A program made the position numbers and the translations under genes. This document shows, piece by piece, positions 3,089 to 64,000 of a stretch of 64,000 bases of DNA; the stretch's first letter is position 1; the number at the start of each line of letters is the position of its first letter. Source of the DNA: Leucoraja ocellata (Eukaryota). The stretch lies in NCBI GenBank assembly GCA_036785375.1, contig JAWMAR010000168.1, positions 4,650,001 through 4,714,000 of the forward strand. Direction: 5' to 3'. A model generated the notes under the pieces. That model searched no databases. It saw only the letters and a list, made by a program, of their open reading frames with translations, and was not told the origin of the DNA.

Positions 3089-3222
3089 CTGCAGTCTTGA
3101 ATCCCGATGCCTTGTCCAACCTTCTGGAAGCCACGAGGGCAGAAGAGATTTTGGCTTATCGCACAGGAGGTACAAGCTGTGGCCAACAACAACTCTAGCT
3201 GCTCGTTGCAATGTTGCCGTTT
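3089..3222 (-). CDS. STAB1: Stabilin exon 2, N-terminal Cys-rich region: KRQHCNEQLELLLATACTSCAISQNLFCPRGFQKVGQGIGIQDC(R)
   Basis: Acceptor ccacttAG (3223-3224), donor GTAATT (3088-3083), 134 nt, phase 0/2. The C-x11-CTSCA-x7-CP-x-G...QDCR pattern matches my recollection of the STAB1 N-terminus (CTSCAAIKKQTCPSGW...QDCR). STAB2 is not excluded. Not in the ORF track in this frame. Confidence 0.85.
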
Positions 3223-5948: not shown

Positions 5949-6294
5949 GTTCTCCAACAAGAGAGACCTCCTGGTTTGTGGGCACTGCCGGGACAAACTG
6001 TGATCAATGAGAGGGGCCAGTCACCACCGTGTCTCCCCACCCCTCCCCTCCCCTGCTGGTTAACCAGGGTGGACCCCATCAATTGTGAAACATCCAGTAA
6101 GCTAAACTATCCCCATCGCCGCGGGACAGAATAAACAGATACTGGGTGGGGGTGGGGGATATGCAAAGGCACAAGTTGCCAGTCCCCTCGTTCAGGCATT
6201 AACAGGGTTCACAGCGGACAAGCCACAGGATGGGAAGGCGAGCAGGACAGAAGGAGAGGAGAAACTTGCCTGTGTAGTGCAGCCACTTGCTTAC

Positions 6295-6387
6295 CTTCTG
6301 TCTCTCGGCAGCCCCGGGGCAATGAGTAACCAGCTGGACAAGCAACAGCAGCAGCGCTGCACAAAGCGAGGAGTTGACACTTTCCAT
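6295..6387 (-). CDS. STAB1: Stabilin coding exon 1, signal peptide MESVNSSLCAALLLLLVQLVTHCPGAAERQK
   Basis: Strong Kozak (aacATGg), hydrophobic h-region, AAG|GTAAG phase-0 donor at 6294; joins in frame to the exon at 3089-3222 (intron 3223-6294). Confidence 0.85.
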
Positions 6388-6800
6388 GTTTCAGCATCAG
6401 TCAGTACAGAGAGGGACCGCTGTTGTTGCCCGCTGCTCGCTGTGACCAGAGTGGCAACACACTCCCCGCGGTAGCCCGACTCACTCACTCACTCACTCAC
6501 ACACACCACAGCCCGGAGACGCTCGCCTCCCAGATACCAGCGTGCACTGGAGATGAGAGCGAGGGTGGGAGTCCTTTCTTTAAAAAAAACACAGCGGATA
6601 AAGGTTGCTTCGGAAGGAGTCCCTTCTATGTATGTATATGATCTATAAAGACCCGGGATTAACTTTCACAAGTCTTCCAGAAAGCAGGATTTCCTTCTGC
6701 CATATCAAAGCGGGACAGATGTTCGGAAATCCGCCGCTGCTATTGCAGATAAATGTCACAGATTTGGGGGGCGAGTCGTTTCCCTTCCTCTGGGGGGCGG
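6388..6800 (-). promoter_or_regulatory. Stabilin 5'UTR and proximal promoter (TSS not determined)
   Basis: CpG-richer, transposon-free DNA directly upstream of the ATG; (ACTC)n at ~6479-6500; TTTAAA near 6578-6583; GGAA/ETS cores, inverted kB-like GGATTTCC/GGAAATCC and AGATAA. Confidence 0.55.
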
Positions 6801-8159: not shown

Positions 8160-8950
8160 TTTTGATCCTTTAGTTGAAAAGGGCAGCAGGGAGAAATCGG
8201 CAAACTACAGGTCAGTCAGCCTTACATTCGTGGTGGGAAAATTATTAGATGGGATTCTAGGACAGGATTTATCCACATTTGGAACAGCAAGGACCTATTA
8301 AGGATCGTCAACATGGCTTGGCACTGATAAATGACGTCTCAAGAAACACACTGAATGTTCAAAAGTCTTCCAGAAAGCAGGATTTCCTTCTGCCATATCA
8401 GAGCGGGATAAATATTCGGAAATCCGTCACTTCTACGTTGGTATTGCAGATAAATGTCACAGATTTTTGATTGAATGTTTTTTAAGCGATGTCCAACAGG
8501 ATCGATGAGGGCAGGACAGTATGGACCTTGCAAAGGCCTTTGATAAGCTCCAACATGGCTGGAAGGTTAGAATACTTGGGATTCAGGGTAAATTAGCCAA
8601 TTAAATCAAAAATGTGCTTGGTGGTAGCAGGCAAAGGGGGGTAGTGTAGAGCAGCTTTTCAGATTGGATGCCCTGTGACTGGCAGCATGTCACACAGATC
8701 AATGTTGGTCTTCTGCTGTTGGTCCTATATATTGGTGATTTAGCAGGTTTGTAGATGATACCAAAATTAGTGGTGTCGTGGACAGTCAAGGAGGTTGTCT
8801 AAGGTTCCAACAGGACATCGATCCACTGGGAATGTGAACATGGGGATGGCAAATGGAACCTCATTTGGACAAGTGTGAAGTGATGCATTTGGGGTTAAAG
8901 AAGGCAGGACCCTGTGGAATGTCATGGAGAGACTTTGAGGCACAAGTTGA
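8160..8950 (+). mobile_element. Old CR1 RT fragment interrupted by a promoter-derived insert
   Basis: EKSANYRSVSLTFVVGKLL, aaggcctttgataag (KAFDK) and gtagatgataccaaa (DDTK) remnants. Confidence 0.75.
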
Positions 8951-10477: not shown

Positions 10478-11347
10478 CATTTTATTTATTTATTTATATA
10501 GCACATTTAAAAAAACAACTCTCGTTGGCCAAAGTGCTTTACATTTGTTATAAGAATAATATAAACAAACAAACTACATACATATATACATACAGCCCTC
10601 GCTCAGTGGACGTCAGGAAAGGCTTGAGAATATAGATAAGATTTTAGTCTTGACTTAAAGGAGTCGATGGAGGGGGCAGTTCTGATGGGAAGGGGGATGC
10701 TGTTCCACAGTCTAGGAGCTGCAAATGCAAAGGTGCGGTCGCCCCTGAGCTTATGCCTAGACCGCGGGATATTCAGCAACCCCAAGTCAGCCGATCTGAG
10801 GGACCTGGAGGTGGAGTGGTGGGTGAGAAGACTTTTAATGTAGGTGGGGGCAAGCCCATGAGGGCTTTGTAGACATAGAGGAGGGTCTTGAAATGTATAC
10901 GGAACTGCACAGGGAGCCAGTGGAGAGAGGCTAGGATCGGGGTGATGTGGTCCCTTTTTCGGGTGCCCATTAGGAGTCTCGCTGCGGCGTTTTGGAGCAG
11001 TTGCAGGCGGGACAGGGAAGATTGGCTGATGCCAGTGTAAAGGGAGTTGCAGTAATCTAGGCGGGAGGAGATAAATGTGTGGATGATCTTTTCGAGGTCA
11101 TCAGTGGAGGAATTGTTTTATTTTAGCTATCTTTCGAAGCTGAAAGAAGCTAGCTTTTACCACGGCATTGACTTGTTTGTCAAATTTCAATGCTGAGACA
11201 AATATCACGCCAAGGTTTTTGACGTGAGGTTTGAGTAGTGGAGTAAGGCTTCCAAGGCTGCCTGCTATTATTTTGATTGAGTCCGAGGGGCCGGGAAGGA
11301 TGACCTCAGACTTACTCTCATTTAGTTGGAGGAAGTTCTGGGCCAGC
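10478..11347 (-). mobile_element. L2-clade LINE 3' fragment
   Basis: NFLQLNESKSEV, VKNLGVIF, RKRDHITPILASLHWLPV, GDRTFAFAAPRLWNSIP; tail tgtaaagcactttgg...gtgctatataaataaa. Confidence 0.9.
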
Positions 11348-12049: not shown

Positions 12050-12958
12050 CTAGATTAAGTGGGATCCGTTGGGTCCCAGTCACACGGGAGGCCTGGTTCC
12101 CCCAACGCAACCCATTCCCCAATGCAATATTCCACCACTCACCCATTCCCCCAACGCAATATTCTACCACTCACCCATAGCCCCTAATTGCACAGGCGTG
12201 GCTCATTTCCCCTCATCATGGATGGGGGTGTATGAACATGGGGGGGATGGCTGTGAGCGCGGGGGGTTTATGGGGGAAGGGGGGGGGGGTTGTTGGGGGA
12301 GGGGGGTGGGCAGGGGGGAGGGGGGATAGAGCTCAGAGAAAAGACGGGGGAAGAGCCATGGGGGAGAAGGGGGGTATCACGGGGAAGGGGGGCTGGAGCC
12401 AGCGAGGGGGACCAGAGGAAAAGGGGCTGGAGCTGGCGGTGCGATGGGAACTCACCGTGGACGCTGGGCGCTGGGCGCTGGTCGTTCTCCAAGTCTCTGA
12501 TTTCCATTTGGCGACATCGGCAACATCTCTGACTCCGTGCCAGGCTGGGCTGGGTTGGGCTGGACCAGACCGGGCCAGGCCGCTTCCGGACCCTCTGAAA
12601 ATTGTGTCTGGTTGGAGACTTCCGCCACCATCCAGAGCGTCCTTCAGCTCCAGTAAAGACGTTATGACGCAGGAAGGGGCAGTCCGTCCCGTGGAGTAAC
12701 AGGAGAAGATACTAAACCACGCGCCACTGACTGGCAGGAGAGGAGATCGATCTATGTACGCGCGGTTTTTAAAAGATTTTTAAGCCTCGCGAACTTTTAC
12801 ATTATGCCACCGATCTGAACGAAACTTGGTGCACTCGCAGTGCAGGAGAACGGCGAGTGAGCTGGTGAAAAATCATAGCGCTATCACATACCGTTTTTGC
12901 GCAAATAGAAAAACCACACAAACTGTTAGATAACAAGATCACAGTTTTAGTTATGTAA
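12050..12958 (-). mobile_element. Non-autonomous Helitron (copy 1)
   Basis: Minus-strand 3' end: hairpin GGGACCC-AAC-GGATCCC then CTAG|T. The 5' end is a decayed TTACATAACTAAAACTGTGATCTTG, homologous to copy 2. No TSD. Confidence 0.8.
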
Positions 12959-12973
12959 TAATTATAATTATAA

Positions 12974-13735
12974 CTAGACTAAGTGGGACCCGTTGGGTCC
13001 CAGCATCACATGGGAGGGCTGGTCACCACCTCTCCACCAAATCCAATACTGCTCACCAGTGGGGGGGGGGGGGGGGGGTGGGGGCTGTCTGTTGCGCTAG
13101 TATCAGTGTTGCGGGCCGAAGGTACTGGTTTCCAGAGGGCTAGGATAGACATTGTGGGCCGTATGAATGCTTGGAGAGGCATCCAACTGTTGCAACTATT
13201 TTAAAAGCCAAGCCAAGGCAAAAAGATTGGGCTGCAGACACCCAACAACCAAAATTCATTTGTGAACACAAACTTGTTAAAAAAAAAGGCGGGGCAAACA
13301 ATTGGGCTGCAGACACCCGACAACCAAAATTCATTTTGTGAACACAAACTTTTTTCAAAGGGCTGCAGCCGCTTTACAGCCACATCGAGGGGACTCACCA
13401 TGGAGTAGACGTGCGTTCAGTGTTATTCGCAGCTCATTCTCTGCCAGACCCTCTTGCTTCCTGTGTCTGGCAGAGACTGAGTGAGGCACGACACTTCCTG
13501 GTTTTATAGTCCCTCCCCCTGCCGCCAGCAGGGGCAGCAGAGAGAATGGGGAAATTTGTAAAAACATTAATATCGCTCTCATTTTTTATCGACAGAAAAA
13601 AACTCCGCACTCATACGGAGGAGGGGAGCTCTGAGCGAGGTGGCCAAAAATGACGGCCGTAGGTGGCGGCATTCTCTCGGAAATCGCAGCACAGTCGGCC
13701 AAAAGTGGTCAAGATCAGAGATTTAGTAATATAGA
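12974..13735 (-). mobile_element. Non-autonomous Helitron (copy 2)
   Basis: A|TCTATATTACTAAATCTCTGATCTTG 5' end; perfect hairpin GGGACCC-AAC-GGGTCCC (12985-13001) 7 nt before terminal CTAG|T; inserted at AT with no TSD. Confidence 0.88.
13393..13530 (-). promoter_or_regulatory. Putative Pol II core promoter and first exon inside Helitron
   Basis: TATAAAA 13508-13502, CAGGAAGT, Inr TCAGT with A at 13478 (30 nt from the first T of TATA), ATG 13401-13399 directly followed by GTGAGT. Confidence 0.55.
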
Positions 13736-16898: not shown

Positions 16899-17800
16899 AT
16901 AATAATGATAATAATAATGTTTATTTATATAGCACTTTTCAACAAAATCAATTTGAACCAAAGTGCTTTACAGAGATTGATTAAACTAATTGAACAGATG
17001 AAATGTCAATAAATCCATACAAAATAAAAAGAAAAAAGAAAAAGAAAAAAAGACACAGAACTGTACACTATAGAAATCAACAAGAAACGTCCCCCCACAG
17101 CAGAATTCACTGTGAGGGAAGGCACTAAAAATATCCAGTTCTCCCCCTCATAGTCCACCCAAGGTCGGGGCCTATATGTGGCCTCCTCAGCCAACTCAAT
17201 GTTTACAGGCCCTCTGCCGCGAAGCTGGATCATCGGCGTCGGGTGAACATTCTTCAGCGGCCTGGACTGAAGCGGCCGCTTCCTCCCTGAAGACTGCAAT
17301 GTCCAAAGTTCTCGGGCCGCGCTGGCCGACCTCTGACACTGGCGAACGCGGACACCAGGCCCCGCGGTGTTGAAATCCAGTGCCGCCCGCCCGCGGCTGG
17401 ACGCTCTGCAGCCACAGCTCAACGCTGTTGCAGTCAGCGTTCACAGTGCCCCGGAGCTTACCGCAAGGTGACCCGGTAAGGCATCGCCCGCTCCGTGTTG
17501 GTGTTGGTGTCCCAGCATCTGCACCGCCGGCGACGCTGCAGTCCCGGCAGGAAACGCCGCTCCAGTGCTGCTCCAGCTCGATGGTAGGCCGCACAGAGAG
17601 GACGAAGAAGCGGTTCGGAAGAAAACCGCATCTCCGACCAGGTAGGACTGGGATTAAAACAGTTTCCCCCTCCCCCCCCCCACCCACCACATAAAAGAAG
17701 ACTTCCAATAAACATTTTGTACGGACAGGACTAAAAATAAAAAAGGGTGAAAGGACGGACTGCAGGAGGAGCAGCCATACACAACGGCGCATCACCCCCG
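16899..17800 (-). mobile_element. GC-rich non-coding retroelement family copy ending in an L2-type tail
   Basis: Body homologous to 46100-46815 (cccagtcctacctggtcggagatgcgg; gtgccttccctcacagtg); 3' end tgtaaagcactttgg...gtgctatataaataaa(tta)n. Confidence 0.6.
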
Positions 17801-24149: not shown

Positions 24150-27100
24150 TTATTCTAGACTGGGTATTGAGTAATGAGGAAGGGTTAATTAGCAGTCTTG
24201 TTGTGCGTGGCCCCTTGGGCAAGAGTGACCATAATATGGTTGAGTTTTTCATTAGGATGGAGAGTGACATTGTTAATTCAGAAACAAGGGTTAATTCAGA
24301 AACAATGGTGACTTTGAGGGTATGAGACATGAATTGGCCAAGATAGACTGGCAATTGATTCTTAAAGGGTTGACGGTGGATATGCAATGGAAAACATTTA
24401 AAGACTGCATGGATGAACTACAACAATTGTTCATCCCAGTTTGGCAAAAGAATAAACCAGGGAAGGTAGTGCATCCATGGATAACAAGGGAAATCAGGGA
24501 TAGTATCAAAACAAAAGATGAAGCATACAATTTAGCCAGAAAAAGCAGCCTACCAGAGGACTGGGAGAAATTCAGTCCAGCAGAGGAGGACAAAGGGCTT
24601 AATTAGGAAAGGGGAAATAGATTATGAAAGAAAACTGGCAGGGAACATAAAAACTGACTGCAAAAGTTTTTATAGATATGTGAAGTGGAAAAGATTAGTA
24701 AAAACAAATGTACGATTTGATCATGGGGAACAAGGACATGGCAGACCAATTGAATAACTACTTTGGTTCTGTCTTCACTAAAGAAGACATAAATAATCTG
24801 CCGAGAATAGCAAGGGACCGGAGGTCAAATGAGATGGAGGAACTGAGTGAAATCCAGGGTAGGCGGGAAGTGGTGTTAGGTAAATTGAATGGATTAAAGG
24901 CCGATAAATCCCCAGGGCCAGATAAGTTCAGATTCAGATTCAATTTTAATTGTCATTGTCAGTGTACAGTACAGAGACAACGAAATGCATTTAGCATCTC
25001 CCTGGAAGAGCGACATAGCACATGATTTGAATAAATAATAATAAGTGTCCGGGGGGCGTGGTGATTGGCAGTCACCGAGGTACGTTGTTCAGTAGAGTGA
25101 CAGCCGCCGGGAAGAAGCTGTTCCTCGACTGCTGGTTCGGCAACGGAGAGACCTGTAGCGCCTCCCGGATGGTAGGAGGGTAAACAGTCCATGGTTGGGG
25201 TGAGAGCAGTCCTTGGCGATGCTGAGCGCCCTCCGCAGACAACGCTTGCTTTGGACAGACTCAATGGAGGGGAGCGAGGAACCGGTGATGCGTTGGGCAA
25301 TTTTCACCACCCTCTGCAATGCCTTCCGGTCGGAGACAGAGCAGTTGCCATACCATACTGTGATGCAGTTGGTAAGGATGCTCTCGATGGTGCAGCGGTA
25401 GAAGCTCACCAGGATCTGAGGAGACAGATGGACCTTCTTCAGTCTCCTCAGGAACAAGAGACGCTGATGAGCCTTCTTGATCAGAGTAGAGGTATTGTGG
25501 GTCCAAGAGAGGTCATCGGAGATGTTGACTGCCAGGAACCTGAAGCTAGAAACATGTTCCACCTCCGTCCCATTAATGTGGATGGGGGTGTGCGTGCCGC
25601 CTCTGGACTTCCTGAAGTCTACAATGATCTCCTTGGTCTTCTTGGAGTTAAGGGCCAGGTTGTTGTCAGCGCACCATGTTGCTAAGTGCTGGACCTCCTC
25701 CCAGTTGTATCCCAGAGTACTTAAGGAAGTAACCCCAAATATAGTGGATGCATTAGTGATAATTTTTCAAAACTCTTTAGATTCTGGAGTAGTTCCTGAA
25801 GATTGGTGGGTAGCTAAGGTAACACCATTTTTTAAAAAGGGAGAGAGAGAGAAAACGGGGAATTACAGACCAGTTAGTCTAACATCGGTAGTGGGGAAAA
25901 TGCTGGAGTCAGTTATTAAAGATGGGATAGCAGCACATTTGGAAAGTGATGAATTCATTGGACAAAGTCAGCATGAATTTATGAAAGGTAAATCATGTCT
26001 GGCGAATCTTATAGAATTTTTTGAGGATGTAACTAGTAGAGTGGATAAGGGAGAACCAGTGGATGTGTTATATCTGGACTTTCAGAAGGCTTTCGACAAG
26101 GTCCCACATAAGAGATTAGTATACAAACTTAAAGCACATGATATTGGGGGTTCAGTATTGATGTGGATAGAGAACTAGCTGGAAGCAAAAAGTAGGAGTA
26201 AACGGGTCCTTTTCAGAATGGCAGGCAGTGACTAGTGGGGTGCCACAAGGCTCAGTGCTGGGACACCAGCTATTTACAATATATATTAATGATCTGGACG
26301 AGGGAATTGAATGCAACATCTCCAAGTTTGCGGATGACACGAAGCTGGGGGGCAGTGTTAGGAGGATGCTAGGAGGCTGCAAGGTGACTTGGATAGGTTG
26401 GGTGAGTGGGAAAATGCATGGCAGATGCAGTATAATGTGGATAAATGTGAGGTTATCCACTTTGGTGGCAAAAACAGGAAAGTAAGACTATTATCTGAAT
26501 GGTGGCCGATTAGGAAAAGGAGAGATGCAACGAGACCTGGGTGTCATGGTACACCAGTCATTGAAAGTAGGCATGCAGGTGCAGCAGGCAGTGAAGAAAG
26601 CGAATGGTATGTTAGCATTCATAGCAAAAGGATTTGAGTATAAGAGCAGGGAGGTTCTACTGCAGTTGTACAGGGTCTTGGTGAGACCACACCTGGAGTA
26701 TTGTGTACAGTTTTGGTCTCCTAATCGGAGGAAAGACATTCTTGCCATAGAGGGAGTACAGAGAAGGTTCACCAGACTGATTCCTGGGATAACAGGACTT
26801 TCATATGAAGAAAGACTGGATAGACTAGGCTTGTCCTCGCTAGAATTTAGAAGATTGAGGGGGGAATCTTATAGAAACTTACAAAATTCTTAAGGGGTTC
26901 GACAGGCTAGATGCAGGAAGATTATTCCCGATGTTGGGGAAGTCCAGAACAAGGGGTCACAGTTTAAGGATAAGAGGGAAGTCTTTTAGGACCGAGATGA
27001 GAAAATCATTTTTTACACAGTGGTGAATCTCTGGAACTCTCTGCCACAGAAGGTAGTTGAGGCCAGTTCATTGGCTATATTTAAGAGGGAGTTAGATGTG

Positions 27101-28931: not shown

Positions 28932-30041
28932 ACACAAAAATGCTGGAGAAACTCAGCGGGTGCAGCAGCATCTATGGAGCGAAGGAGATAGGTAACCTTT
29001 CGGGCCGAAACCCTTCTTCAGACTGATAGGTGGGAAAAAGGGAGGAGGAGGAGCCCGAGGGCTGGGGGATGGGAGGAGACAGCCCGAGGGCTAAGGAAGG
29101 GGAGGAGACAGCAAGGGCTAACAAAATTGGGAGAATTCAATGTTCATGCCCGCCGGATGCAGGCTCCCCAAGCGGAATATGAGGTGCTGTTCCTCCAATT
29201 TCCGGTGTTGCTCACTCTGGCAATGGAGGAGACCCAGGACAGAGAGGTCGGATTGGGAATGGGAGGGGGAGTTGAAGTGCTGAGCCACCGGGAGGTCAGG
29301 TAGGTTCTTGTGGACCGAGCGGAGCTGTTCGGCGAAACGATCGCCCAACCTCCGCTTAGTCTCACCGATGTAGATCAGCTGACATCTAGAGCATCGGATG
29401 CAGTAGATGAGGTTTGAGGAGATACAGGTGAACCTCTGTCGCACCTGGAACGACTGCTTGGGTTCCTGAATGGAGTCGAGGGGGGAGGTGAAGGGACAGG
29501 TGTTGCATTTCTTGCGGTTGCAACGGAAAGTGCCTGGGGAGGGGGTGGACCGAGAGGGAAGGGAAGAATTGACAAGGGAGTTGCGGAGGCAGCGGTCTTT
29601 GCGGAAGGCAGACATTGGGGGAGATGGGAAGATGTGGCGAGTGGTGGGGTCACGTTGGAGGTGGCGAAAATGATGTAGGATTATTTGTTGTATGTGACGG
29701 CTGGTGGGGTGAAAGGTGAGGACTAGGGGGACTCTGCCCTTGTTGCAAGTGCAGGGATGGGGAGAGAGAGCAGTGTTGCGATATATGGAAGAGACCCTGG
29801 TGCGAGCCTCATCTATGGTGGAGGAGGGGAAACCCTGTTCCCTGAAGAATGAGGACATTTCAGATGTGCTGGTGTGGAACGCCTCATCCTGGGAGCAGAT
29901 GCGGCGTAGACGGAGGAATTGGGAGTGGGGGATGGAGTCCTTACAGGAGGCAAGGTGGGAAGAAGTGTAGTCCAGATAGCCATGTGAGTCAGTGGGTTTG
30001 TAGTGGATGTTGGTCAGGAGTCTATCACCTGCGATGCTGCG
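28932..30041 (-). mobile_element. Penelope-like element, 5'-truncated; RT C-terminus, Cys linker and GIY-YIG endonuclease (ORF 29118-29858)
   Basis: RVPLVLTFHP, CNRKKCNTC, NLIYCIRCSRCQLIYIGETKRRLGDRF, VAQHFN, GMNIEF; 3' hammerhead-like CTGAAGA-AGGGTTTCGGCCC-GAAA; 14-bp TSD ATGTGTAGGGTAGT. Confidence 0.92.
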
Positions 30042-31221
30042 ATGTGTAGGGTAGTGTTAGTGCGCGGGGTTCACTGGTCGGGGCGGACTCGGTGGGCAGA
30101 AGGTCCTGTTTCCACTCTGTATCTCTAAATTAAACTATAATTTCCCTAGTGATCTTGTGGGTGTCCTCCAGGCGCTCTGGTTTCCTTCCACATCACAAAG
30201 GCATGCACGTTTGCAGGTTAATTGGCTTCTGTAAGTTGCTACTGGTGTGGAGGGAGTGGACAAGAAAGTGGGATAGCATTGAACTTGTGTGTATAGGGGG
30301 TCGATGGCGTGCACTCTGTGGGTCAAAGGTCCTATTTCCATGTTGTATCTCTGAACAAAACTACCAAGTGTACTTACCAAGAACAGATGGAGAAACCAGT
30401 CTGTCACAAAGCAGAATGAACTCCTGATCAGTACACACAATGCACATGGGTGGACACTTTCATTCATCTCCGGCTTAACAAGCACCACCTGTCATTACTT
30501 CATATAATGTACAAGTAATTGGGGCAGCAATTTATGTCAACAGACAAATGCATTCAACTTTAAATAATTAAATGCTCTAATCTCTGTACAAAACCATTAA
30601 TCTTTTGAAGTGGCTGTGGTGATTTTGTTTATTCATCATTTAATCACAAAATATGTGGGCGTCATTGGCCTGGTCCACATTTAATGCCCAGCTCTTGTGT
30701 ACCTAATTATTAGAAGCAACCTACATTTGCAACATTTCTTTCTTTCCATGTAATATTAAAATTAAATACTACACTTAAAATATTTATCTTCCATGCTGTT
30801 GTGGCATATGACAAACATTGATTTCTGAAAATTGTCATTCAGCACAAACTAATTCCGACAACATCCTTTGTATACTTAAAGATGGAAGCAAGCATCCAGG
30901 GGAATACCGTTTGGCTGATTTGTCTGAACTTATCAGGTCTCACTTCAATCACCTTAAGAAGAGAATGTTAAACTTTGTTTCTCTTGTTTGTAATGGTTTA
31001 TAATGAGTATTGATTAATTAGTGGTTAATTTTCCTCTATCAAACTAACATTGGTGGGACTAAGGGGCAAAAAAATTTGTTCGGCACGGACTTGTAGGGCC
31101 GAGATGGCCTGTTTCCGTGCTGTAATTGTTATATGGTTATATGGTTATTGACTATCTATATAATATTACACTCTGAGAGTGTTCAATAATTACTCAATCA
31201 ACTTATACCAACTTATACCAT

Positions 31222-40250: not shown

Positions 40251-40253
40251 CTT

Positions 40254-40475
40254 AATAATAATAATAATAATAATAATCTTATTTATATAGCACATTTTCA
40301 GTCAACTTGCATTGACCCCAAAGTGCTTCACATAATTACATTACATTACACACAGGCAAAGGTGGGTGAAGTGTCTTGCCCCAAGGACACAACGACAGTA
40401 TGCACTCCAAGCGGGATTTGAACCGGCTACCTTCCGGTCGCCAGCCGAACTCTTAGCCCATTGTGCTATCTGTCG
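40254..40475 (-). mobile_element. tRNA-derived CORE-like SINE with L2-type tail
   Basis: A-box TAGCACAATGG, B-box GGTTCAAATCC, core gtgtccttggggcaagacacttcacc, tail gtgaagcactttgg...gtgctatataaataaa(tta)n. Confidence 0.85.
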
Positions 40476-45434: not shown

Positions 45435-45747
45435 AAAAATGCTGGAGTAACTCTGCGGGTCAGGCAGCATCTTTGGAGAAAAGGAACATGTGACATTTTG
45501 GGTCGAGACCCTTCTTCAGACTCTGAGTCACGGTAGAGGGGAACTAGAGCTATGGAATGAAGAGGGCTTTAGTCATACCTAGTTTTATACCTTTAGTTTC
45601 CCTCTCCTCTGACTTGCAGTCCGAAGAAGGGTCTCCACCCGAAACCTCACCTATTCCTTTCCTCCAGAAATGCTGCCTGACCCACTGAGTTACTCCAGCA
45701 TTTTGTGTCTATCTTCGGTGTAAACCAGCATCCGCAGTTCCTTCCTA
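45435..45747. mobile_element. Palindromic Penelope-derived element with two outward-facing hammerhead-like cores
   Basis: Inverted arms around a ~90-bp spacer; TSD CACAAAATTGCYYGACA at 45418-45434 and 45748-45764. Confidence 0.82.
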
Positions 45748-59079: not shown

Positions 59080-60075
59080 CACCGGCCCCTAATTGTTCTA
59101 CGTATATAACGAAACAATTACTAATAATCATTAAAAGGAGCTATAAAAACTTGACATTTTATCAAAAACAAGGTATGTTCTATGTGTTGCCATTTAATGT
59201 TCTTTAGTGATTCTTTGTCTTTGACTGAAAGAGATGACCACTCTTTCTGCTTGGAGAAGATCTTCAAGACAAAAACACTGTCCGCAGAGTGATGCTTTAA
59301 AGACTTGCATCTCCTTATCAACCTTTTCCTTTAGCTTGCCAGGATATTTTTCAAAGCTACTTACAACAGTCTAAATCTCCTTTCTCCTTCGAGTCAACTG
59401 CAAGAGTGTCGTCCTTACTTTATGAAGCCAAACTACAGCAGTCTACAGATTCCTCCATGATGAGAAATAGGTGATAAGAGAGTTTGCGGGGTTCAATGGG
59501 TCCTTGACAATGACGTTCATTGTAATATCTTGCTTGATTCCGGGATCATTAGCAGAGATTGAAGGTTCCACGTGAAGCTTTGGCCATTCTCTGTCTGGTT
59601 TACAGAGAAACTCTGGTCCATTGATCCATCTCTTGCAGCTTAAGAAGCGGTCTGCTGTTAGTCCTCTATAGGCTTCATCTGCAGGATTTTCCTTTGTGCC
59701 ATCATATCTCCATTGTGATACATGAGTAGCATCCCTTACAAAAGAGATCCTGTTTGCTACAAATGTTTGGAAGCGTTTGGTTTTGTTGTTGATGTACTTA
59801 AGCACTGTTGTGCTATCGGTCCAGAAGATGGATTTGTTCTGTTGAAGCTGTAATTCCTTTTGCAGCATTGTGTCAAGTTCCATCCGGGGAATCGTCATTT
59901 GTTTTAATGGTGCCACGCTGGATTTTCCCGTTATGAATGCAACATGCACTTGTTTGTTATCATCTTCCAGTCTTAGATATGAGACAGTAACGTAGCCACC
60001 TTCGCTTGTGTCTGAAAAGTGGCGCAGCTGTGCATATCTGATCTGACCAACGTTTGTGGTCTTCATGCACCAGTC

Positions 60076-60309
60076 TGTGCAAAGTACTATTGATACAGTC
60101 ATTATATATCATAACAAGTACTTTAATTAGAATACATACAGAGACCATTGAAATGAGTACTGTATGCTCTGAGTCATAGGTTGAACTAACTAACATGGCT
60201 GCCCGCATGCCACCAGGTGATGGTGTGGAAAACCTGACATGGATTATGCATCAGGTCATCAACAGCAAAGCCAGACATGGATCAAATCAGCAATACTGTT
60301 TGATCTACA
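60076..60309 (-). mobile_element. Solo LTR (234 bp) of another family inserted in BEL pol
   Basis: TG...CA termini, perfect 5-bp TSD CAGTC (60071-60075, 60310-60314), ATTAAA on the minus strand. Confidence 0.78.
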
Positions 60310-60350
60310 CAGTCCACTTTAAATTCCGCCATCTTGTTGAGATCTGCTAA

Positions 60351-60600
60351 CATAGAAACATAGAAACATAGAAAATAGGTGCAGGAGTAGGCCATTCGGC
60401 CCTTTGAGCCTGCACCGCCATTCAATATGATCATGGCTGATCATCCAACTCAGTATCCTGTACCTGCCTTCTCGCCATACCCCCTGATCCCTTTAGCCAC
60501 AAGGGCCACATCTAACTCCCTCTTAAATATAGCCAATGAACTGGCCTCAACTACCTTCTGTGGCAGAGAATTCCACAGATTCACCACTCTCTGTGTAAAA
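60351..60600 (-). mobile_element. CR1 3' fragment nested in BEL
   Basis: [13 protein letters not shown]...; (CTATGTTT)n tail. Confidence 0.9.
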
Positions 60601-61470
60601 TCGTCCTGTCCTGTCCTAACCATCCTGTCCATCGCTGAGAGAAAGTTTGGGTATGTTTTATCCCATCCGAGTCTTTCCTTACAGAGCTCCTGCATAATCC
60701 GCTTGGCTGGCAGAGTATATGGTGCTGGAAATCCTAAAGGGTCGTATATAGAGGCAACCACGGACAAGATGCCCCATCTTGTGTATGGCCGTTCCTGTGT
60801 AGCAACTCTGAACTTGAACACATCTGTTTCAACGCATCAGTGGCTCTTTCCATTGGCAGATTGTCCTTGTCCAAGTCCAACTCATTGGTCTCCTTGGTTC
60901 TGTTTTCTTGTGGAATGAATGCCAATACAGCACAGCTGTTGCTGATCCACTTTCACAGCATGAATCCTCCCATTTGGCAGAGGGAAGTCAGGTCCCTTGC
61001 CATTTGAACTGCTTCCTGTTCGGAAGGCATGGAATTTAAACAATCGTCTACATAGAAGTTGTTTTTTACTGTGTTTGTCACCTCTGCTGGAAAGTGATCT
61101 TTGTTGTCTTCAGCAGTCTTCCTCAATGCTAAATTTACACAACTTGGTGACGACAAGGCTCCAAAAAGAAGTACCTTCATCCGGGGTAACCAACAAGATC
61201 TTTCTGCACATCACCCTCGGGCCACCACAGGGATCGCAGATAGTCAACATGCTTTTCTGATACATTGACCTGATGAAACATTGTTTTGATATCAGCCATC
61301 ATAGCAACCGGTTCTTGTCTGAATCTGATGAGAAATCCAATGGATGAGTTGGTAAGGTCTGGACCCTGCAGCAGTTGGCAGTTAAGTGATGTTCCTTTGA
61401 AGACTGCACCACAGTCAAAGACCACCTTCAAGGTTCCTTTCCTTGAGTGATGCACCCCATGGTATGGGAT

Positions 61471-61830
61471 TGGACAGGTTAGATGCAGGAAGATTGTTCC
61501 CGATGTTGGGGAAGTCCAGGACAAGGGGTCACAGCTTAAGGATAAGCGGGAAATCCTTTAAAACCGAGATGAGGAGATTTTTTTTCACACAGAGAGTGGT
61601 GAATCTCTGGAACTCTCTGCCACAGAGGGTAGTTGAGGCCAGTTCATTGGCTATATTTAAGAGGGAGTTAGATGTGGCCCTTGTGGCTAAAGGGGATCAG
61701 AGGGTATGGAGAGAAGGCAGGTACGGGATACTGAGTTGGATACAGCCATGATCATATTGAATGGCGGTGCAGGCTCGAAGGGCCGAATGGCCTACTCCTG
61801 CACCTAATTTCTATGTTTCTATGTTTCTAT
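61471..61830 (+). mobile_element. CR1 3' fragment nested in BEL RT
   Basis: Removing it restores ELWY|IPYHGVH. Confidence 0.9.
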
Positions 61831-64000
61831 GTACCAGAGCTCTCCATTACTTCGATTCAGCTGGTCCACTGGTACCATTTCAGCATAACAATTGTCAATC
61901 ATTTCTGTGAGGAAAGATGTATATTCATCATGAAATGTCTTATTCTTGCCAAACCTGCGTTGCAGGCTCCGGATGAGCTGCTCTGCAATGCAAGGGTTAT
62001 TTGGCATGCTGACTCTTTCCTCTTTGAAAGGTAAGTCTAGACAATAGTGTTCATCTCTCATCTTTGCTGAGCGATCCATAATATCCAAGAACTTTACCTC
62101 TTCTCTGGACATTGCCTCTGTTTCTGTGCTGGTCCTTTCATTGAAGTTGTGATTGTATTGCTTGACCAGTAGCTCCTCTAGGTTTACAATGGATATTCAA
62201 TTGGCAACAGCAGCAGGGTAGCCATTTTTATCCCTGGTGTCATTGAGACAATACTGGTGTGAGTCATCTATGGTCCCCTGAGCAGAGACTGTTCAGGGAA
62301 TCATAGGTGACACACCCCAGTATGGTCCAACCCTTTAGCTGTTGACTAGCTCCCAAGGTTCCAATACCTTTGAAGCATTTGTCCCAATGAGTAGGTCAAT
62401 GCCTGAGTCTATTTCAGGAATCTTGATATCCTTGAAGTAAAGCCATTGTTTCAGGTCTTCCTATCAGGGAATGTATAGCTGAGAAACTGGCATGGTCTTA
62501 TGTGTGAACACATCAGATAGCTGGATAAAATCATCTTTGTCCAGACTAGATATTTCCATACCTGAGATATGACGACTGATCACAGGCTTCACGGTTCATG
62601 GTACGCACCAGAATATTGGTCTGTTGGCCTGTATTGTTCAGCCTTCTCATCAAGCCTTCTATGCAAAAGCTAGTAGAACTTCCATGATCCAAACATGCGT
62701 ATGTTTGCAACACTGTGTCCCCCTTGTGGCTATTTACCTGTACTGGTACAATGGAGAAGATGCAGGTTTCTTCACCGGCCCCAATATGCCCACACATATG
62801 AGGTGTGGGAAGAAAATTACCCACAATTGGCTTCTCATTTTGCTCTGTATGCTCCAGCTTCTTCTTTTTGTTCTTTTGTTCAATGTAAAGTATTTCAGGA
62901 TGATTTTGGTTGCACACATCACAAGTCAAACGACTTGCAATCATTGTTCATGTGTCTTATCTTCAAACATCCAAAGCCCACTCCCTTCTCCTTTAGGAAG
63001 TCTATCCTTTCTCCGTGCCACTTCTTCTTGATTTGTGGACACCGCCCCAATGTGTGACTACATTTATTACAGAACAAACATGAACCTTGAGTATTGGTGT
63101 CGATACATTTCTTCTCATTCCACTTGTTGTCAGATTTTCTTGCACTGCTGTTCCTGCAGTTGTTGCAAAACTGTTTCCTCTTGGTCCCGACCTTTCTTTT
63201 GCTTTAGCAAAAGTAGAGCTATTGACAGTTGTGATTGGCCAAGCGTCCTGGATGTTTCCGAAAAGTGGCAGTATCTTCACTTGTCTCTCCAAGAAGTCTA
63301 CCAGGTCAAAACATTTAGCTCGATGTCCATGCTTTTCCTGTAGCTGACATGCCCTATCCCTCCACTTGTCTCTGAGCTTGCAAGGCAGTTTTAGAAGGAT
63401 AGTCTTCATATTGGAAGCAACATTCATTTCCTCCATATAGGTGAGATGTTCCATTGCATTGTGACAACTTCTAAGGAACAGTGAGAACGTTTGCAATGCC
63501 TTCACATCCTCTGATCACTGACCAGGCAAATGCCTTGACCATGTATGCAATGGCAATCTTATGTTCATTACCAAAGCAAAACTTATGTTAATTCTTTAAG
63601 CAGATCTTTTGCTCTTTGATAGACCTGGGTTGGAGGCAAATGTTGGCAACTGCGGACTAAGTCTTTTGGATACCCTCTTGTGTATTGCTCTAGAAAATGC
63701 AAACAATCACCCATAACATTAGTTTTTGTTTCCACTCCTCTCTCAAATGCCATGATGAAATCTTCATACTGCAAGGGATCACCATCATACACAGGAATGT
63801 CTCTTGGTGGTATAGAAGAGAGATTTTCTTGTGCCAGAAGAGCAGTGACGTCATTTTGCCTCTGCATCAGGTTCCAGATATCACCTTGGTTTCCATCATT
63901 CAGTACGGGGAGGATAGTGCGAACATGCCCCTGCACACCCTTTTTCATATGAGTCTACATTTTGCTTTTGAAGAGAGTATTGAGTTAGATGGGTCTTATC

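Follow-up and report, generated by a model that had tools for sequence, protein, structure and literature searches.

A short Helitron upstream of a stabilin gene in Leucoraja ocellata carries a candidate promoter and splice-donor cassette

We found that a short Helitron in Leucoraja ocellata, upstream from and co-directional with a predicted stabilin gene, contains promoter-like motifs followed by an ATG and a consensus splice donor. The window that we analyzed was a 64-kb (64,000-nucleotide) stretch of one contig. On balance, we favor the view that these motifs constitute a promoter and donor that are carried by the transposon and could trap exons, and that at this locus the cassette is most likely silent or non-productive. 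The cassette would have arrived with the transposon and would not be an adaptation specific to stabilin.

Two Helitrons in tandem and the gene downstream

The window contains two related Helitrons, A and B, and a stabilin gene on the same strand. The main features are as follows.

12974 to 13735, minus strand: non-autonomous Helitron A, 762 bp, with 5' TC and 3' CTAG and without a transposase ORF
12974 to 13002, minus strand: 3' end of Helitron A, with 8-bp GC-rich hairpin arms, a 3-nt loop, a 6-nt spacer, and CTAG followed by T
13201 to 13354, minus strand: tandem duplication inside Helitron A, period of about 76 nt, 86% identical
12050 to 12957, minus strand: sister Helitron B, head-to-tail with A, with related 5' and 3' ends; its 5' TC is not intact
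6295 to 6387, minus strand: stabilin coding exon 1, signal-peptide-like, with a strong ATG context and a donor at 6294
3089 to 3222, minus strand: stabilin exon 2, with a phase-0 acceptor that is weak on the matrix used (-1.1)

Helitron A has the expected ends. The TC at 13735 is preceded by the A of an (ATT)n tract and the CTAG is followed by T, as for an insertion between A and T, and there is no target duplication. Among the 25 longest of 81 inverted pairs, none was a terminal inverted repeat of A. These termini agree with the Helitron ends described in PMC4778049, and by its terminal features A would be classed as a canonical TC/CTRR-type Helitron. The first-pass annotation had described the cassette as Helitron-borne, and this was borne out by the TC/CTRR termini, the 3' hairpin and the insertion between A and T. 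Counting a third, partial unit, the tandem repeat in A spans 13201-13382 and enters the right arm of the palindrome described below; there is one 14-nt near-palindrome in each unit of about 76 nt.

Helitron B is related to A at both ends. The two elements are separated by 16 AT-rich bases. Their 5' ends are related over about 150-185 nt (nhmmer E of 0.013-0.016) and their 3' ends more closely (E of 2e-6 to 4e-6, with two differences in 28 nt); the 3' hairpin and CTAG of B are as in A, with one mismatch. Global alignment of the 5' ends used an uninformative scoring, with 191 of 500 shuffles aligning equally well. A and B matched only each other in BLAST and nhmmer searches, and there were no further copies of either in the 64-kb window. 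We found no second copy of the cassette (the TATA-ETS motif, allowing up to 3 mismatches, gave 1 match in the window) and no homology between the cassette and any other window sequence. There were 0 matches in prokaryotic (exact scans), plasmid and phage collections, and 0 matches to Rfam in the window at the gathering score.

Elsewhere in the window are several decayed frames whose translations resemble retroelement proteins. We take these to be GIY-YIG/Penelope-like (29118-30056, minus strand), LINE reverse-transcriptase-like (25089-26893) and BEL/Pao-like (59443-63999, minus strand). Within Helitron A, there are words that we assume to be CTCF-core-like at 13655-13669 and 13521-13540 (both plus strand).

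The downstream gene is, judging from its predicted exons, a stabilin (STAB1/STAB2). An exhaustive search with exon 2 returned 6 proteins, and the identification is based on one of these, P0003, with which exon 2 shares 23 of 42 residues (55%). The top Atlas cluster for P0003 is 'STAB2 protein (Fragment)', with a features score of 0.91 and a structure TM of 0.66, thereby linking exon 2 to stabilin. Exon 2 by itself had no named match in PDB, Pfam, the Atlas or the word-indexed search, which covers proteins of up to 2000 residues (full stabilin is longer); P0003 had no match in PDB or the word-indexed search and a weak one in Pfam (E of 0.18). Exon 1 encodes 31 codons, is hydrophobic and signal-like, and ends in phase 0, so that the ATG in the Helitron, if joined to 3222, would be in frame. 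The earlier proposals that the gene is a stabilin and that the frames match in phase 0 therefore hold.

A segment upstream of stabilin is duplicated. The 100-bp segment at 6665-6765 (minus strand), which precedes the stabilin ATG by about 280-380 nt, has a second copy 1.7 kb farther upstream, at 8358-8466; the two are 85% identical and are the only copies in the window. The segment contains GATA-type and GGAA words, and we assume the latter to be ETS-type. It is possible that the pair is a duplicated endothelial enhancer module, and as a lead on regulation we prefer it to the Helitron ATG.

The Helitrons themselves might act on stabilin from a distance. The observed/expected ratio for CpG is 0.73 in the 5' half of A and 0.97 in the 5' half of B (12957-12440), compared to 0.41 for the window. 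In A, this ratio together with the intact core motifs suggests that the element is possibly unmethylated and active. A distal enhancer or boundary for stabilin, with ETS sites in CpG-rich DNA and no transcript start, would fit these ratios, the GGAA cores in both elements (including GGAAG words in the CpG-rich pseudo-exon region of B that we presume to be ETS-type), and the location of A and B 5.7-7.3 kb upstream of the gene. However, age alone makes young transposons CpG-rich, and we consider this reading very unlikely.

A promoter-like cassette in a degenerate palindrome

The cassette in A and the corresponding sequences in B are listed below.

13511 to 13526, minus strand: G-rich box, predicted to pair as a 3' arm with the adjoining upstream C/T tract in a local hairpin
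13502 to 13508, minus strand: TATA box TATAAAA, first T at 13508, 7/8 to TATAWAWR
13492 to 13500, minus strand: GGAAG core in CAGGAAGTG, which we take to be ETS-type
13476 to 13480, minus strand: initiator-like TCAGT, with the predicted +1 A at 13478
13423 to 13437, minus strand: uORF of 4 codons plus TAA, with A at -3, ending 21 nt before the donor ATG
13393 to 13401, minus strand: ATG (13401-13399) followed by the consensus 5' splice site GTGAGT (13398-13393)
13433 to 13481, arms 13481-13465/13449-13433: core stem with a 15-nt loop; 12 bp are perfect, and the stem reaches 17 bp if one mismatch is allowed
13346 to 13568: ungapped degenerate palindrome, 223 bp, centre 13457, with the TATA and G-rich boxes in one arm and the ATG and donor in the other
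12726 to 12758, minus strand: TATA-like TACATAGA in B (6/8), 30 nt upstream of the A of TCAGT, overlapping a pyrimidine-tract acceptor
12446 to 12460, minus strand: donor motif in B, with ACG where A has ATG and the GT at 12455

The G-rich box, TATA box, ETS-type core, TCAGT, uORF and ATG with its donor had all been reported in the first-pass annotation, and each is present as listed. The first T of the TATA box is 30 nt from the A of the initiator. The 12-bp perfect stem that had been placed just after the start site is also present (13476-13465/13449-13438), but it extends to 17 bp and thus straddles the initiator. The hairpin starts 2 nt from the predicted cap, and the single mismatch in the 17-bp stem is the A of the uORF ATG. 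There are two perfect 12-bp stems with loops of up to 30 nt in the window. The 80-nt exon-like segment of the cassette had a predicted folding energy of -26.5 kcal/mol (z of -2.21), and 6 of 200 shuffles were as good. A pre-miRNA was rejected; the predicted RNA would have just 12-14 bp of stem.

We compared the motif set with chance using 200 dinucleotide shuffles of the window, on both strands, with patterns that were defined after seeing the site. The exact TATAAAA and TCAGT pair at 30 nt occurred once, and 1% of shuffles had one. The combination of TATAWAW and TCAKT at 28-33 nt with a GGTRAG donor within 300 nt was also found once, and in 7% of shuffles. With a looser initiator and a donor this became 14% of shuffles, and with a looser initiator and an ATG at the donor, 1%. 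TATAWAW with the loose initiator and without a donor was common, with 7 in the window. The set of TATA box, initiator and donor is moderately beyond chance. A second TATA and TCAKT site, at 45589, was discarded; it lies between two inverted repeat copies and has no donor within 300 nt. Similar false positives, with TATA- and initiator-like sequences, occur at the 3' ends of repeats where TATATAAATAAA is followed by AT-rich tails (16899-16960, 40253-40310, and 10481-10540 on the minus strand).

The donor in A ranked 22 of 7072 GT sites in the window, compared to ranks of 8 and 35 for the native donors of exons 1 and 2. The splice-site matrices used here and below are approximate, were drawn from general knowledge, and take no account of exon definition or enhancers.

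The stem is the core of a larger palindrome. Outside the 17-bp core, 42 of 87 positions pair, with 25% expected (binomial P of 2.4e-6, with end points chosen post hoc), and twelve neighboring registers had 16-26 of 87 paired. Block shuffles that preserved local composition gave P of at most 5e-5, and removal of a terminal T/A block left 31 of 71 (P of about 0.001). Across the window, 9 of 127,200 centres reached 42: the palindrome in A, six clear inverted repeat pairs, a compositional C-rich/G-rich case in B, and an apparently chance case at 6219. Against this background, we conclude that the signal is real, though of moderate strength. Poorly paired stretches of opposite arms contain the TATA box and the donor. 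The six inverted repeat pairs (centres 1255, 2799, 11429, 36570, 36628 and 45570) are closely spaced and form long palindromes; the pair at 1255 differs in sequence from the short interspersed repeat that makes up the other five.

The palindrome is most simply read as an old inverted duplication within the element, the centre of which was later homogenized to a near-perfect stem; template switching is known to homogenize the arms of inverted repeats (PMC8604942). We judged it unlikely that the palindrome is a separately inserted MITE because its outer left end is within the 5' stretch that is common to A and B. No palindrome matching that of A was found in B between 12450 and 12800, where the best centre paired 34-35 of 87.

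B has a layout that is similar to that of A but weaker. An equal TATA-like match at -30 was found for 13 of the 165 TCAGT sites in the window, so the TATA and TCAGT arrangement in B is suggestive at most. The donor motifs of A and B are identical at 17 of 20 positions, a similarity that is nominal (19 of 1000 shuffles with the donor as query, 92 of 1000 with the whole interior). The ACG in B indicates that the ATG in A may have arisen by a CpG-type change. These similarities hint that the layout of TATA box, initiator and donor could be ancestral to A and B, and possibly the Helitron's own promoter. The 223-bp palindrome and the weaker layout in B are new relative to the first-pass annotation.

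A more ambitious reading is also conceivable. There might be, in this fish lineage, a family of short Helitrons with an uncaptured TATA/initiator promoter of its own and a non-coding first exon, both lying in a 223-bp fold-back palindrome, the core of which would form a hairpin near the cap in the RNA. The layout would have been kept in sister families such as B, with many working start sites and exon traps seeded throughout the genome and possibly a new upstream promoter for stabilin here. We regard this as speculative and rather improbable.

The motifs could also be an inert coincidence in a degenerate, palindromic stretch of transposon, with no promoter activity in any copy. The patterns were chosen post hoc, a comparable set appeared in up to 14% of shuffles, the uORF ATG is a single mismatch of the stem, and the seven loose TATA and initiator pairs are often in repeat tails. 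However, the exact 30-nt spacing, the adjoining ETS-type core and G-rich box, and the strong donor are all within about 135 bp, and a similar layout, albeit weaker, is found in B. We think that coincidence is an unlikely explanation, although one that deserves some weight.

Possible fates of a transcript from the cassette

Where the cassette is active, RNA polymerase II would start near 13478 and the donor would join the nearest usable acceptor, as in HelibatN3 of bats. At the stabilin locus, this copy is most likely silent or makes low-level, non-productive RNA. Such RNA would use the acceptor of B (12730) or some other cryptic site and would end at the AATAAA sites between 11122 and 9471. 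The B acceptor scores 4.5 and is about 670 nt downstream of the A donor; with the B donor at 12455, it bounds a pseudo-exon of 275 nt (12456-12730, minus strand). If the A donor were joined to 12730, the frame from the ATG would reach a stop after 23 codons. The would-be intron leading to exon 2 includes five sense AATAAA, three of which are clustered:

10481 to 10494, minus strand: cluster of three sense AATAAA (starts at 10494, 10490 and 10486); the others start at 11122 and 9471

That the Helitron exon has an ATG, and that this ATG is in frame with exon 2, would be incidental. An in-frame match is a 1-in-3 event.

The first-pass annotation had inferred that splicing of the Helitron exon to exon 2 would produce a stabilin without a signal peptide (M-KRQHC...). 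The cassette is on the same strand as stabilin, both sides of the junction are phase 0, and the donor is among the best in the window; in addition, HelibatN3-driven bat transcripts are N-terminally truncated (PMC4778049). Our results did not support the prediction. The intron from 13399 to 3222 would be 10,176 nt and would cross the native promoter and exon 1, with the pseudo-exon of B and the AATAAA sites in between. The exon-2 acceptor is weak, and 92 of the 586 AGs in the interval outscore it, 60 of them upstream of 6600. Translation would also be impeded. In a transcript joined to exon 2, the ATG would be flanked by T at -3 and A at +4 (no purine at -3 and no G at +4), it is behind the hairpin and a uORF with A at -3 that ends only 21 nt upstream, and in B it is ACG. 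A large, disulfide-rich type I membrane receptor that lacks a signal peptide would probably misfold, which also counts against this product. The preferred distances for reinitiation are 79-140 and 39-42 nt and depend on the transcript (PMC10275272). At the level of titles and abstracts, the open-access literature had no report of a signal-less stabilin isoform or of a promoter-bearing Helitron in skates or sharks. We conclude that a truncated, signal-less stabilin made from the cassette is unlikely, and give very little credence to a translated one.

Alternatively, the cassette could serve as an upstream promoter whose transcripts are joined to acceptors in the native 5' region, at 6577 or 6546, to give full-length stabilin with a new 5' UTR. 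These acceptors score 3.9 and 4.0, compared to -1.1 for that of exon 2. The Helitron ATG frame would close after 27 or 18 codons, respectively, before the native ATG at 6387. A novel 5' UTR is the most common gain in bat NUBPL-driven transcripts (PMC4778049). However, transcription would have to continue for about 6.8 kb, through B and the five AATAAA, and translation would be dampened by two uORFs and the hairpin. Taken alone, we find this outcome quite improbable; if the cassette does reach stabilin, it is no less likely to be spliced to 6577 or 6546 than to exon 2.

We believe that a transposon-borne exon trap, here probably silent or non-productive, best accounts for the combined observations: the Helitron termini; a sister element that shares both termini and has an ACG version of the donor motif; a motif set beyond chance at the 1-14% level; the better-scoring AGs and the AATAAA sites on the way to exon 2; the poor ATG context, short spacer and cap-proximal hairpin; the palindrome statistics; and the splicing of HelibatN3 to nearest and cryptic acceptors. 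Several considerations weigh against it: the donor in A equals real donors of this locus in strength, real first exons skip many cryptic AGs, the splice matrices are approximate, the similarity between the A and B donors is nominal, and the CpG ratio and intact core motifs of A suggest that it may be active.

Comparison with known systems

A Helitron that acts as an exon trap by carrying a promoter, start codon and donor is already known from bats. The broader suggestion of the first-pass annotation, that the Helitron may disperse a portable promoter and first exon, thus has a direct precedent. HelibatN3 of Myotis captured the promoter of NUBPL, six codons and a splice donor, and traps exons when mobilized, using the nearest downstream acceptor as well as cryptic sites (PMC4778049). 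In the same account, 3 of 46 predicted bat transcripts near HelibatN3 insertions start inside the element. Helibat exemplars with captured promoters represent 15 genes and 4,690 copies in bats (PMC4224331).

By its motif content alone, A would be placed in this class of promoter-capture exon traps. Like HelibatN3, it is non-autonomous, has TC/CTRR ends and carries a sense-strand promoter, start codon and donor, as predicted for A. Like the Helibat exemplars, it would hold the 5' end of a gene (promoter, UTR, first exon and part of an intron) inside a Helitron. In contrast, the HelibatN3 cassette is proven to have been captured from the host and has been shown to splice, and the exemplars are mammalian captures traced to named genes, whereas A is from a cartilaginous fish, is known from sequence motifs, and has one codon before its donor.

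If the cassette is active, the dispersal of promoters and trapping of exons by Helitrons, experimentally shown in bats, would extend to another vertebrate lineage. The compact TATA/initiator cassette is easy to test across copies. An element-native promoter in a palindrome, if true, would represent a new variant and be informative about Helitron transcription. Should the locus be silent, A is no more than a commonplace transposon that inserted close to a gene. What merits further attention is the palindrome and the possibility that the promoter is native to the element.

An element-native promoter has a potential parallel in Heli1Xen1, an autonomous Helitron of Xenopus laevis with a presumed promoter at its 5' end (PMC12001565). 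Similarly, A and B may retain a native 5' promoter after internal deletion, although A, unlike Heli1Xen1, has no transposase ORF. The palindrome resembles the inverted repeats described in PMC8604942, which have near-perfect short core arms, a spacer, and more diverged outer arms; homogenization of those repeats was shown by phylogeny in yeast coding DNA, whereas the palindrome in A was read from a single sequence. Compared to HelibatN3, A is distinguished by its TATA/initiator core, by the location of that core within a 223-bp palindrome, and by an insertion that is upstream of a gene rather than intronic.
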